From positions 1-64,000 of the forward strand of contig JAMQGV010000048.1 in NCBI GenBank assembly GCA_025994075.1: 64,000 bases of DNA. Direction: 5' to 3'. Below, piece after piece: positions 1-4,595 of the stretch. Made by a program: the position numbers and the translations under genes. The stretch comes from Vicinamibacteria bacterium (GTDB lineage Bacteria; Acidobacteriota; Vicinamibacteria; Fen-336). The first letter of the stretch is position 1, and every line of letters begins with the position of its first letter. Under the pieces are notes generated by a model. The model did not search any database and was not told the origin of the DNA. It saw nothing but the letters and a program-made list of their open reading frames with translations.

Positions 1-1
1 C

Positions 2-874
2 ACGGCCCGGCGCGCCGAACGCTTCGCCCCGATCGGGCAGCGGGCCAGGTCGATCTGGGAACAGTTGCGGCTGCAGAGCAACGTCGACCTGCGCGACGTG
101 GTGCTCGAAGGCACGGCGACCAAGCGCCGGGTCGAGCTCAAGGTCGCCGTGGACGGCGCCGACTCGGTGGCGCTCGGCGTGATGAGCCAGGGCGAGATCC
201 ACGCCCTCGCGCTGAGCCTGTTCCTCCCGCGCGCGACGCAGCCGGAGAGCCCGTTCCGCTTCCTGGTCATCGACGACCCCGTGCAGTCGATGGACCCGGC
301 CCGCGTCGACGGCCTGGCTCGGGTGCTGGCCGAAACTGCCCGCGAGCGCCAGGTGATCGTCTTCACCCACGACGACCGCCTCGCGGAGTCGGTGCGCCGC
401 CTGGCCCTCGACGCCGCGATCTTCGCCGTGACCCGCGCCGAGGGTTCGATCGTCGAGGTCAAGCCGAACGCCGACCCCGTCGACCGCGCGATCGGGGACG
501 CCCGGGCACTGGCGCTGACGGACGAGCTGCCGCCCGCCGCGGCTCGCCGCGTCGTGCCCGGGCTGTGCCGCCAGGCGATCGAGGCCGCGGCCATGCAGGC
601 CGTGCGCGCGCGCCGCATCGGCCGCGGCGACCGCCACGACGACGTGCAGGCCGTGCTCGAGAAGGCGAGCGGGCTGAAACTGGTCGCCCTCGCGCTGTTC
701 GACGACGAGCAGCGCGCCGGCGACGTGATGAACCGGCTCAACCGCGAGCGACGGACGTTCGGAGACGCCTGGCAGTGGTGCGCTGCGGGCAGCCACGAGG
801 AGGTGGCCGGCGACCTGATGGCCCACGTCAACGACGCGCACGCGCTGGCTCGCTGGCTCGCGAGGTCGGCATGA
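2..874 (+). CDS. SMC/RecF-like ABC ATPase, C-terminal part (5' end lies outside the window); about 130 aa of extension follow the H-loop
   Basis: The frame is open from nt 2. The translation shows an ABC signature-like MSQGE, a Walker B FLVIDDP, a D-loop SMD and an H-loop FTHDD. The stop overlaps the next start in an ATGA. Confidence 0.7.
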   Translation, partial: TARRAERFAPIGQRARSIWEQLRLQSNVDLRDVVLEGTATKRRVELKVAVDGADSVALGVMSQGEIHALALSLFLPRATQPESPFRFLVIDDPVQSMDPARVDGLARVLAETARERQVIVFTHDDRLAESVRRLALDAAIFAVTRAEGSIVEVKPNADPVDRAIGDARALALTDELPPAAARRVVPGLCRQAIEAAAMQAVRARRIGRGDRHDDVQAVLEKASGLKLVALALFDDEQRAGDVMNRLNRERRTFGDAWQWCAAGSHEEVAGDLMAHVNDAHALARWLARSA

Positions 875-1245
875 GCGGTGCGTCCGAGGTGCGATTCCTG
901 CTCGACACCGCACGCGACCTGCTCGCGCGCCCGCGCCGTGGGGAGCTGGCCGGCACCTGGCCGCGGGCCGCGGCGCTGCTGATCCGGCAGGCCCTGGAGG
1001 CGGCGCTCGACCAGTACTGGCGCGACCGCGGCCTGGCGCTCCACGAGTGCAACGCGCGCGCCCAGTGGATCTGCCTCGCCGACTACGAGCGCAAGGATCC
1101 CGCGACCGTCGCGGCACTCTCGGGCACCTGGCACGCCCTCTCGCGCGCCTGCCATCACCATGCCTACGAGCTGCCGCCGACCGCGGCCGAACTCCGGGGC
1201 TGGCTCGACGTCGTCGAGCGCTGGCACTCGCGGACCACGGGCTGA
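871..1245 (+). CDS. small hypothetical protein with a HEPN-like Rx4HxY motif (SRACHHHAYE)
   Basis: ATG at 871 overlaps the upstream stop (ATGA). The 124 aa product has a C-terminal RACHHHAY segment that fits the HEPN Rx4-6H consensus. The track ORF 565-1245 is an upstream extension of this frame. Confidence 0.5.
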   Translation: MSGASEVRFLLDTARDLLARPRRGELAGTWPRAAALLIRQALEAALDQYWRDRGLALHECNARAQWICLADYERKDPATVAALSGTWHALSRACHHHAYELPPTAAELRGWLDVVERWHSRTTG

Positions 1246-1315
1246 CGCTCGGTCGCGAACCGGACCTGCCGCGGCTGCAGGCGAGGCGATCATCGCTCCA
1301 CCGAGGAGGAACGCG

Positions 1316-1624
1316 ATGTTCGAGCCGGGACAGTTGAAGGCCGTGGCCGCGCGGGTCGAGGTGACGGTGCCGTTCGGCGTGATCGCGGAGTCGAAGGAGC
1401 AGGCGCCCCGGCGAGTGATGCGGTTCCTCGAGGCGCTCTCCGCGATGCTCGAGCAGTCGATGGCGCCGGGCACCTTCGGGATCCGGCGCCCGAAGGTCAC
1501 CCGGGTGGTGGTCGAGGAGGTGCTCCAGGTCCACACCAGCGAGGTCGAGGACGACGTGCGGATCACCCGCGAGCCGGTCAGGCGCGAGCGCAGGCCCCGC
1601 GCCGCGAAGCCCCGGCGGCGCTGA
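1316..1624 (+). CDS. small hypothetical protein with an Arg/Lys-rich C-terminal tail
   Basis: ATG at 1316 follows a GAGGAGGA RBS 5 nt upstream. The product is 102 aa and ends in RRERRPRAAKPRRR. It is convergent with the DinB gene. Confidence 0.5.
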   Translation: MFEPGQLKAVAARVEVTVPFGVIAESKEQAPRRVMRFLEALSAMLEQSMAPGTFGIRRPKVTRVVVEEVLQVHTSEVEDDVRITREPVRRERRPRAAKPRRR

Positions 1625-1631
1625 CGCCCGG

Positions 1632-2165
1632 TCAGCGCTCCCGGGCGAGGGCCGCGCGGATCTCGACGATCTGCTGGCGGTGGCGCTCCTCGTGGCAGGC
1701 GATCATCTCGAACCAGGCGTAGAGGTGGATGCCGCCGAGCGCCTTGTGGACCAGCCGATAGCGGGTGAGGTCGCGGTCGCGGTTCTCGGCGATGAACGCC
1801 TTCAGGTCCGCGCGCGAGCCGGCGAGGCGGGTGAGCAGTTCCTCGCGGGTCGGCGGCTGCTCCGCGGGGGCGACGATCTTCGGGTTCCGGATCCGGATTC
1901 CGCGCCACAGCACGACGCGCGGCGGCAGGCAGCGCAGGCGGTCGAAGAGCGAGACGGTGGACGGCTTCGTGCCGGCGACCATCGCGCGGAAGTGGGGGAC
2001 CAGCCGGCCCTCGAGCACGGCCAGGTGGTCGAGCACGTGACCCGCGCTCCAGGCGTCCGGGGCGGGGCGCCGCGCGAAGTCGTCGTCCGGCATCGGCGCG
2101 ACCTCGGCGAGCAGGCGGCCACGCGTGTCGTCGAGCAGCGTCAGCGTGCGGTCGAGATCGGCCAT
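1632..2165 (-). CDS. DinB/DinB_2 superfamily metalloenzyme-like protein
   Basis: 177 aa. His-rich helical-bundle features are present (HVLDHLAVLEG, CHEERHRQQ). Confidence 0.7.
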   Translation of the reverse strand: MADLDRTLTLLDDTRGRLLAEVAPMPDDDFARRPAPDAWSAGHVLDHLAVLEGRLVPHFRAMVAGTKPSTVSLFDRLRCLPPRVVLWRGIRIRNPKIVAPAEQPPTREELLTRLAGSRADLKAFIAENRDRDLTRYRLVHKALGGIHLYAWFEMIACHEERHRQQIVEIRAALARER

Positions 2166-3461: not shown

Positions 3462-3488
3462 CACCCCTGACAACCGATGTCAGGGGTG
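3462..3488. promoter_or_regulatory. perfect 11-bp-arm palindrome cacccctgaca-N5-tgtcaggggtg (copy 2 of the CCCCTGAC/TGTCAG motif)
   Basis: The inverted repeat is visible directly. It sits between the lipoprotein stop and the WYL regulator start. No T-tract follows it. Confidence 0.45.
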
Positions 3489-3533
3489 CCGCCCTCCTTG
3501 GAACCTCGCAGGGCAGGTGAAAATGCGCCTCGC

Positions 3534-4595
3534 ATGGCACGACAGCCTCGCCGTCCCTCCCGACGAGCCGTCCAGGTGACCCGCCCCGCGCTGCGCCGCC
3601 TGCTGTGGGCGATCGAGCAGTTGCGCGCGCGGCGCCCGCTGACCGCCACCGCCCTCGCCCGCGAGTTCGAAGTCAGCGTGCGGACGGCGTACCGCGATCT
3701 CGACTTCCTGCGCGACGAGTGGCGGGTCCCCCTGGACTTCGACCCGAGCGAGCGGACCTACACCCTGACCGGGCCCATCGGCGCACTGCCCACGGTCACC
3801 CTCAGCGAAGGAGAACTGGTCGCGCTCTACTTCGCCGAGAAGGTGCTCGGGCAGTACCGCGGCACGCCGTTCGAAGGGGACCTCGAGAGCGCGTTTCGCA
3901 AGATCCAGGAACTGCTGCCGCACCTGGTGCCCGTCTCGCCGGAGCAGATCCACGACTACCTGAGCTTCGACCCGGGAGCGCTCCACACGCCGGATGCCGG
4001 CGTCTTCCGCACGCTGCTCCGCGCCTGGCAGCAGCGTCGGCGCGCCCGCGTCCGCTACCGGAGCCTGAGCACCGGCCGCACCGCCACCCGCGATCTCGCG
4101 CCGTACCACGTCGCCAACCACCGCGGCGACTGGTACGTCGCGGCCCACGACCCGGGCCACGACGACGTGCGCCTCTTCGCGCTCCACCGCTGCCTTTCGG
4201 CCGAGCTCACCGACGAGCCGTTCGTGATCCCGGCCGGCTTCCGCTACGAGCGCTTCATGTCCGGCGCCTTCGGCGTGATGCGGGGCGGGACGCCGCGCGA
4301 GGTGGTGGTCCGCTTCGCGGCCCGGCAGGGGCGCTGGATTCGGGAGCGGCAGTGGCACCGATCGGCCCGGGTCGAGGTGCGCCCCGACGGCGACGTGATC
4401 CTGCGGATGCGGGTGGCGGAGACGAGCGGCGTACGCCGCTGGCTGATGCAGTTCGGCTCCGAAGCCGAGGTCCTGGCCCCCGCGGACCTGCGCCGCGAGG
4501 TCGCGAGGGAACTGTCGCGAGCCCTCGGCGCCTACCGCTCGCGGCGGACCACGGCCGCCGCCGAGCGCGAAGCGACGGACGGCTCGGCCGCCTAG
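3534..4595 (+). CDS. WYL-domain transcriptional regulator (HTH-WYL-WCX architecture, YafY/PafBC/BrxR-like)
   Basis: There is an N-terminal HTH (TALAREFEVSVRTAYRDLDFL), a central WYL-type region (HRGDWYVAAHD) and a C-terminal WCX-like region. The start may instead be the GTG at about 3577. Confidence 0.8.
   Translation: MARQPRRPSRRAVQVTRPALRRLLWAIEQLRARRPLTATALAREFEVSVRTAYRDLDFLRDEWRVPLDFDPSERTYTLTGPIGALPTVTLSEGELVALYFAEKVLGQYRGTPFEGDLESAFRKIQELLPHLVPVSPEQIHDYLSFDPGALHTPDAGVFRTLLRAWQQRRRARVRYRSLSTGRTATRDLAPYHVANHRGDWYVAAHDPGHDDVRLFALHRCLSAELTDEPFVIPAGFRYERFMSGAFGVMRGGTPREVVVRFAARQGRWIRERQWHRSARVEVRPDGDVILRMRVAETSGVRRWLMQFGSEAEVLAPADLRREVARELSRALGAYRSRRTTAAAEREATDGSAA

Follow-up and report, generated by a model that had tools for sequence, protein, structure and literature searches.

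A Rad50-like ATPase and a co-translated HEPN protein form a conserved two-gene unit and a candidate conflict cassette

The window analysed here, positions 1 to 64,000 (forward strand) of contig JAMQGV010000048.1 from a Vicinamibacteria bacterium (assembly GCA_025994075.1), opens inside a gene for a Rad50-like ATP-binding cassette (ABC) ATPase, which is followed directly by a gene for a small, free HEPN protein (gene 2). The two genes constitute a conserved, translationally coupled and mobile unit. On balance, and with modest confidence, we favour the view that this unit is a self-contained conflict cassette of the abortive infection or toxin type, which resembles RloC but is split over two genes. 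By analogy with known systems, its most likely role would be that of a stress- or phage-triggered suicide or defence module that cuts RNA. A sequence-only reading of the same DNA had proposed a module of three genes, the third being a small basic open reading frame (ORF; gene 3). The ATPase and gene 2 are indeed co-conserved, at practically all related loci, whereas gene 3 lies outside the conserved unit.

Only the 3' end of the ATPase gene lies in the window (1-874, plus strand), with an open frame from base 2 and a TGA stop at 872-874; this corresponds to codons 556-845 plus the stop, or 290 residues without it. The 5' 1.67 kb fall outside, and the gene is truncated by the window edge only. 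An exact-sequence look-up of gene 2 returned 15 contigs, several of them 99% identical to the window at the DNA level, and extension upstream on two of these (L001 and L007) recovered the N-terminus and gave a complete ATPase of 845 residues. The full-length protein has a Walker A motif (GRNGSGKS) near residue 112, then a long insert, a CPVC motif at residue 380, and the C-terminal lobe of the head. The lobe carries the signature MSQGE (182-196), Walker B FLVIDD (260-277), the D-loop SMD (287-295) and the H-loop FTHDD (362-376), all on the plus strand and with coordinates checked, which bears out the earlier assignment to the SMC-type ABC ATPases. The head motifs GRNGSGKS, MSQGE, FLVIDDPVQSMD and FTHDD are conserved in 47 full-length homologues, and across 62 homologues the motif residues of the C-lobe show little or no variation. 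Of the 47 full-length proteins, 46 have CPVC and the remaining one has CAVC, always approximately midway between Walker A (residue 112 or so) and the signature (approximately residue 616). Judged from the sequence, this is the place where a zinc hook of the Rad50 or RloC type sits (PMC2610378). Ahead of Walker A, residues 1-75 (L001:7467-7700) form a conserved N-terminal extension with the pattern L..V..RL ... LVLAAL.G, which could be a sensor or docking domain.

In Pfam, the full ATPase gives a single SMC_N match of 63.6 bits over residues 81-689, together with matches to AAA_21, AAA_23 and AAA_15; from the way in which the SMC_N match is split over this range we infer that the protein has coiled-coil arms. 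The best PADLOC matches are mad3 (81 bits), followed by LmuB, PDC-S06, AriA and GajA, all of them restricted to the head motifs, and the nearest solved structures by sequence are SMC and Rad50 heads, with weak E-values. A housekeeping identity as Rad50/SbcC, RecF or RecN, which would have told against the sequence-only reading, was considered and rejected: the NCBIfam scores are far under the cut-offs (Rad50, 17 bits versus 453-1000; recF, 12.6 versus 172), there is no SbcD/Mre11 phosphoesterase partner, and the flanks are variable. The window's ATPase fragment has more than 1100 homologues. At several of the loci discussed below (L030, L044, L046, L049, L058, L066, L075, L085 and L089), the ATPase homologue is found in two or three tblastn segments, implying frameshifts. 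These split genes may be assembly errors rather than pseudogenes, some of the loci being from long-read metagenome-assembled genome projects.

Gene 2 (871-1245, plus strand) encodes 124 residues and starts within the end of the ATPase gene, its ATG at 871 overlapping the TGA at 872-874 in an ATGA start/stop overlap (871-874, plus strand). The protein has an R-x3-E motif (985-999) and an R-x4-H-x-Y motif (RACHHHAY, 1144-1167), so that the size, coupling and Rx4H motif first read from the sequence are all confirmed. No model in Pfam, PADLOC or NCBIfam matches it: at E <= 1, Pfam gives a chance match to CpeT only, placing gene 2 outside PF01934, PF08780 and PF05168, and a profile search against the PDB sequences gave chance matches only. 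At the level of predicted structure, the matches are to sacsin HEPN, Csm6 and HepT toxins (5yep, 7bxo, 6m6u, 7ae2, 8xdj), and Foldseek independently places 2hsb and MntA-HepT complexes at the top, with probabilities of up to 1.00. These matches support the HEPN-like character suggested earlier: the gene 2 protein adopts the HEPN fold and bears an Rx4H motif.

The gene 2 family is large and consistently small in size. A word-indexed search found 384 homologues and an exhaustive hidden Markov model search 1335 clusters at 50% identity (E <= 1e-3), of which the best-scoring 150 are all short stand-alone proteins of 91-243 residues. Among 119 aligned homologues, E43, H95 and Y99 are each present in 119, C94 in 118, H97 in 116 (97%), C68 in 116 and R92 in 106 (89%), and the family has a near-invariant GxWPR loop. 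The motif R92-ACHH-H97-A-Y99 fits RX4HXY, the signature of HepT RNase toxins (PMC7641770), while R39-x3-E43-x51-H95 is within the Arg-X3-Glu-X36-52-His range of RloC and PrrC. We also observed that C68, C94, H95, H96 and H97 (window 1072-1075 and 1150-1161) are invariant or nearly so in the same 119 sequences, which exceeds the needs of an Rx4H RNase. This cluster could be a metal or redox site beside the catalytic motif; RloC is zinc-responsive.

The ATPase itself does not end with the ABC head. In the window fragment, approximately 130-140 residues follow the ATPase core, with a domain of approximately 130 residues at 476-871 (plus strand) that has an R-x3-E motif (RQAIE, 569-583) and a conserved histidine in a GSH ending at 796. 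A predicted model of the 290-residue fragment (predicted local distance difference test score 87) shows the ABC C-lobe and then a helical bundle with a helix order like that of gene 2. Profile-profile alignment with hhalign runs colinearly over 102 columns of this domain and the gene 2 family (E = 4.9e-4, probability 32%) and matches the R-x3-E motifs (CRQAIEAA and IRQALEAA) and the histidines of both; taken as sequence evidence, this is suggestive, not decisive. Pfam, PADLOC and NCBIfam scans gave no match to the domain. From the model, the C-terminal extension is a second HEPN-fold domain, on the same polypeptide as the ABC head. The extension noted earlier is thus present but is no longer uncharacterised, and the idea that the parts of the system are split across separate small genes does not hold in that simple form, because the ATPase carries both a C-terminal HEPN domain and the CPVC hook: the architecture is that of an RloC-like ATPase-HEPN fusion accompanied by a second, free HEPN protein. 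In the numbering of the 290-residue fragment, R190 is conserved in 62 of 62 ATPase homologues, E194 in 60, H265 in 56, N261 in 41 and a lysine or arginine at 258 in 39. In the ATPase of the window, positions 258, 261 and 262 are occupied by Q, A and A, leaving no basic residue nearby, and the fused domain of the present organism is probably catalytically dead.

We examined the distribution of the pair with a pattern scan of one genome per species (185,579 species genomes), which yielded 157 confirmed relatives of gene 2; 80 loci were fetched. Carriers belong to at least 8 phyla, mostly to Acidobacteriota, with others in Actinomycetota, Chloroflexota, Gemmatimonadota, Latescibacterota, Dormibacterota, Spirochaetia and Bacillota, and they include cultured actinomycetes: Modestobacter (among them Modestobacter sp. 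VKM Ac-2982), Geodermatophilus (among them G. ruber DSM 45317), Blastococcus and Nocardia farcinica. In tblastn comparisons, practically all loci with upstream DNA have an ATPase homologue (41-65% identical) whose end lies immediately before gene 2. A four-nucleotide NTGA start/stop overlap joins the two genes in 60 of 78 loci, and TGATG does so in 4 more. Around the pair little is shared: when the 4-kb flanks of 60-68 loci were compared all against all by tblastx, only those of close relatives were similar, and Pfam and PADLOC searches of 148 neighbour proteins from 21 non-redundant loci found no family more than three times and no conserved third gene. The recurrent neighbour families are PIN (three times), HTH_3, HicB (twice), several transposases, and UvrD with PD-(D/E)XK. 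Individual contexts include AbiEii with insertion sequence (IS) elements (L091), PIN-PhdYeFM (L094), and AddAB-like genes with a transposase (L093). That some neighbours are toxin-antitoxin, Abi and IS genes supports the reading of the pair as a conflict cassette.

Some Marinacidobacterales genomes have two copies of the pair, with the ATPase of one destroyed by mobile-element (IS) ORFs. In the second copies at L035 (5152-7182) and L040, the ATPase is replaced or disrupted by transposase- or integrase-like ORFs, and what is retained is a 123-residue ORF for the C-terminal HEPN domain that overlaps an intact gene 2. Such a copy could be in decay, or it could be a HEPN-HEPN pair in minimal form. 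In N. farcinica NCTC11134 (NZ_LN868939.1; L096:5551-11971), the pair immediately adjoins rpoB2, the gene for a rifamycin-resistant second RNA polymerase beta-subunit.

How might the two proteins work together? HEPN RNases are dimers with a composite active site, and for this reason the most economical model is one in which the ATPase-borne and free HEPN modules pair with each other. Gene 1 encodes a Rad50-like ATPase in which two head halves are separated by putative coiled-coil arms joined at the CPVC zinc hook, with a HEPN domain at the C-terminus. At rest, this domain would hold the gene 2 protein in an inactive hetero-pair. The trigger would be a DNA signal detected by the head and hook, for instance DNA ends or foreign DNA that is being replicated, upon which ATP binding or hydrolysis would rearrange or free the HEPN partner; the freed RNase would then cut tRNA or mRNA and translation would halt. 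Two versions of this scheme can be envisaged: the ATPase may sequester a small RNase until a DNA signal arrives, in the manner of PARIS and Lamassu, or the hetero-pair may itself be a switchable nuclease of the Cas13 type. For the present organism we favour sequestration, since its fused HEPN domain has no basic residues near the histidine. A more ambitious possibility, which we put forward only tentatively, is that the pair represents an uncatalogued, phylum-spanning immune family in which one HEPN module is borne by a DNA sensor with a Rad50-type zinc hook and the other comes from a separately encoded, HepT-like subunit, so that recognition of DNA would assemble or release a bipartite RNase. 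The pair would then be a split RloC whose active site is made of two HEPN modules as in Cas13, and its main carriers would be soil phyla that have been little studied (Acidobacteriota, Actinomycetota and Chloroflexota).

Several observations weigh against a defence cassette built on paired HEPN modules. The pairing is a matter of pure inference, and we likewise infer the trigger, the RNA target and the defence phenotype. The position of the canonical arginine, five residues ahead of the histidine, is occupied by Cys, Val or Ala in the ATPase HEPN domain, and R92 of gene 2 is substituted in 11% of homologues; nuclease activity is therefore not guaranteed. Loss of basic residues in the two modules seemed complementary in the raw counts (14:2 versus 19:25), but after clustering at 70% identity (7:2 versus 10:14) the effect is not significant (Fisher p = 0.12). 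The neighbourhoods are defence-like in a loose sense only: most of the 148 neighbour proteins are housekeeping, and in the present genome the neighbours of the pair are ordinary metabolic and transport genes. Lastly, the pair is absent from the INPHARED phages and from IMG/VR, and its sole PLSDB match is a 2.66-Mb N. farcinica replicon on which both genes are present; a phage, plasmid or virus-borne origin was rejected on the same grounds.

Other explanations were weighed. The two proteins might never dissociate but form a bipartite Cas13-like nuclease in which both HEPN modules make up one RNase site, with gene 2 as the obligate catalytic subunit and ATP- or DNA-driven movement of the head closing the site. 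Such a machine would suit two HEPN modules that are distinct yet related, and the strict four-nucleotide coupling, which suggests 1:1 stoichiometry. It would also suit the retention of His265 (56/62) and Asn261 (41/62) in the ATPase domain, where a basic residue occupies position 258, 261 or 262 in nearly all clusters; all 9 clusters in which gene 2 lacks R92 have one at 258 or 262. We nevertheless consider it unlikely, because the complementarity is not statistically significant and the ATPase in the window, with all three basic positions lost, looks like a dead scaffold rather than half of a site. A plain toxin-antitoxin or addiction cassette, in which gene 2 is a HepT-like toxin, the ATPase is an antitoxin or stabiliser that takes the place of the MNT adenylyltransferase, and the cassette stabilises itself or a genomic island with no role in phage defence, seems to us improbable. 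The HepT-type R-x4-H-x-Y motif, the presence of HepT toxins among the closest structural matches, the other toxin-antitoxin pairs and IS elements nearby, the patchy distribution and the variable flanks would all agree with it. However, a Rad50-type ATPase with a conserved zinc hook and intact motifs is more machinery than an antitoxin requires, and the known pairings of ABC ATPases with HEPN or other nucleases (PrrC, RloC, PARIS, Lamassu) are all triggered defence systems. Moreover, in the IS-disrupted copy at L035 the ATPase is destroyed and gene 2 is intact, an arrangement that should be lethal if the ATPase were the sole antidote, unless the surviving C-terminal fragment suffices.

The HEPN modules could also bind a ligand or protein instead of cutting RNA, as in MtlR, sacsin and the substrate-binding domains of nucleotidyltransferases, which would make the pair an accessory DNA-repair or tethering machine. 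This would be in keeping with a head closest to SMC and Rad50, with the non-catalytic nature of some HEPN families (PMC3710099), with an R92 that is not invariant, with C68, C94 and H95-H97 as a possible metal site in place of a nuclease centre, and with the AddAB-like genes beside the pair in L093. Against it stand the lack of an Mre11/SbcD-type partner or of a conserved repair neighbourhood, the match of R-x4-H-x-Y and the conserved glutamate to catalytic HEPN families, and a sporadic (157 among 185,579 species genomes), context-shifting occurrence that is unlike that of core repair genes, and we rate this role as somewhat more improbable still than the addiction cassette. The remaining alternative, a three-gene system with gene 3 as functional third component, we find scarcely credible. 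Some local features speak for gene 3 (1316-1624, plus strand): it lies in the same orientation 70 nucleotides downstream of gene 2, behind a strong ribosome-binding site (GAGGAGGA, 1303-1310), and its 102 codons, ending in an Arg/Lys-rich tail, are coding-like, with a G+C content at third positions of 0.97. Yet by tblastn it occurs only in the near-identical contigs L001-L010 and is missing from all 80 more distant loci and from L011, whose ATPase is 98% identical and where a DinB gene directly follows gene 2. Among 5.8 billion sequences it forms only 3 protein clusters, all at least 81% identical, and its 81%-identical homologue P0392 sits in an unrelated neighbourhood that lacks both an ATPase and a HEPN gene. 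Gene 3 itself has no match in Pfam, PADLOC or NCBIfam. The features originally described for gene 3 are real, but as a conserved component it is refuted: gene 3 is a lineage-specific orphan outside the conserved module, for which only a strain-specific accessory role is left possible.

If the cassette reading is adopted, comparison with known systems shows where it would stand. RloC, like PrrC an anticodon nuclease, has an ABC head and a coiled coil that bears a CXXC hook, and ends in a HEPN nuclease domain whose triad is R-x3-E...H (PMC2610378, PMC3710099); this nuclease is governed by the hook and a DNA-dependent ATPase (PMC2610378, PMC3458546). The present ATPase is like RloC and PrrC in being a protein of approximately 800 residues whose ABC head is interrupted by a (here putative) coiled coil bearing a CxxC hook (the hook in RloC only) and fused to a C-terminal HEPN domain, and in being chromosomal, sporadic and mostly unlinked to restriction-modification genes. 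Double-strand breaks are the activating signal for RloC. It differs in three respects: there is an obligatory second gene for a free HEPN protein, which RloC and PrrC do not have; the fused domain is without the canonical arginine of Rx4-6H; and in the fused motif R190-x3-E194-x70-H265 the spacing to the histidine is 70, compared to 36-52 in RloC. Membership of AAA_13 (PF13166), the RloC/PrrC family, was rejected, since the score is under the gathering cut-off (22.5 versus 36 bits); the match covers residues 614-682 (profile positions 498-573 of 713) in the Walker B region only, and the PADLOC match to PrrC (E = 0.0078) is confined to the same region. The likeness to RloC proposed at the outset stands at the level of architecture, but the parallel drawn with ABC-three-component (Lamassu) systems fails because there is no conserved middle or effector gene. 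LmuB models match the head motifs only (63 bits), and no third conserved gene is found on either side.

Gene 2 resembles HepT in size (approximately 120-130 residues in both), in being a stand-alone HEPN protein with R-x4-H-x-Y, and in having HepT structures among its best fold matches. Its partner is a Rad50-like ATPase, however, and not an MNT nucleotidyltransferase, and it has in addition the GxWPR loop and the C68/C94/H95-97 cluster. A HepT/MntA type VII system was rejected: no MNT gene (GSX10DXD) is adjacent, NTP_transf_2 is not among the recurrent neighbour families, and gene 2 matches no Pfam HEPN family. Fusions of ABC ATPases with HEPN domains have been recognised as one class of predicted defence proteins (PMC3710099). 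Among them, the ERFG_01251 and APECO1_4465 types likewise join an ABC ATPase to a classical MNT-type HEPN domain (PMC3710099); compared by description only, these are single polypeptides, some with a HEPN/TOPRIM N-terminal domain, and the descriptions mention neither a paired free HEPN protein nor a zinc hook. In PARIS (AriA/AriB) and Lamassu (LmuA/B/C), an ABC or SMC-like ATPase sequesters a nuclease effector, which is a TOPRIM protein (AriB) in the former and Cap4 or another nuclease (LmuA), with the kleisin-like LmuC, in the latter, whereas here the effector would be of the HEPN type, a third gene is lacking, and the proposed docking site is the fused HEPN domain. An assignment to PARIS was rejected, the AriA match being partial (51.6 bits) and the partner HEPN and not TOPRIM. 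The PADLOC candidate PDC-S06 is also an ATPase of approximately 850 residues, and its signature and Walker B lie at similar positions (residues 592-700 of the present protein versus positions 600-710 of an 858-position profile, 59.6 bits), but the head motifs alone align and PDC-S06 is catalogued as a single-gene candidate. A full-text literature search found no description of an ATPase paired with a free HEPN protein. By analogy, we would class the pair as an ATPase-gated HEPN nuclease, a known kind of system, in which the degenerate fused HEPN domain and the always co-translated, HepT-like HEPN protein would be new.

The other sequences around the pair appear to be local. Gene 3 lies on a segment of approximately 338 bp (window 1290-1651) that is missing from the 96-98%-identical contig L011 (6373-6440) and is flanked by two 20-mers, TCATCGCTCCACCGAGGAGG at 1290 and TCAGCGCTCCCGGGCGAGGG at 1632, which are loosely similar (13/20 identical). 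Slippage, or recombination over short homology, may thus have produced the indel. The sequence-only reading took the surroundings to be accessory rather than core, and indeed the DinB, methyltransferase and WYL regulator genes are not co-conserved with the pair across the compared loci; the tRNA-like scar that it described finds no support from ARAGORN, which predicts no tRNA or tmRNA gene in the whole window (1-64000). A regulator with an HTH_11-WYL-WCX architecture, like that of BrxR and CapW, is encoded at 3477-4595, 2.2 kb downstream of the pair, and a distant locus from Acidobacteriota (L093:15546-16610) has a second such regulator at 5 kb from its copy of the pair. This proximity is probably coincidence, because the recurrent neighbour families do not include regulators of this kind. 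Just upstream of the ATPase gene and divergent from it, L001 (6373-7359, minus strand) encodes a 328-residue HEAT-repeat protein that is retained in L011 (98%) and L013 (69%) and not in remoter loci; it may be a neighbour peculiar to this lineage and not a component of the system. A promoter and terminator scan round the operon found nothing, but with a G+C content of 74% this outcome carries no information.

Nuclease-gating ATPases of the ABC or SMC type, among them PrrC, RloC, PARIS, Lamassu, Gabija and Septu, are a central theme of bacterial immunity, and all of them raise the question of how an effector is first held and later freed by the ATPase. The pair described here offers a simple case, in which the sensor apparently carries, as a fused docking site, a copy of the fold of the effector itself. 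The family comprises at least 1335 clusters at 50% identity, a large number, with members in at least 8 phyla, and current defence annotation misses it completely, because neither gene 2 nor the C-terminal domain of the ATPase has a Pfam, NCBIfam or PADLOC model; the pair is absent from the defence catalogues, as its early description as an undescribed system had supposed. Since it is found in cultured actinomycetes, the pair is directly testable. Should its function prove to be other than that of an RNase toxin, this would correct the habit of calling every Rx4H HEPN protein a nuclease.

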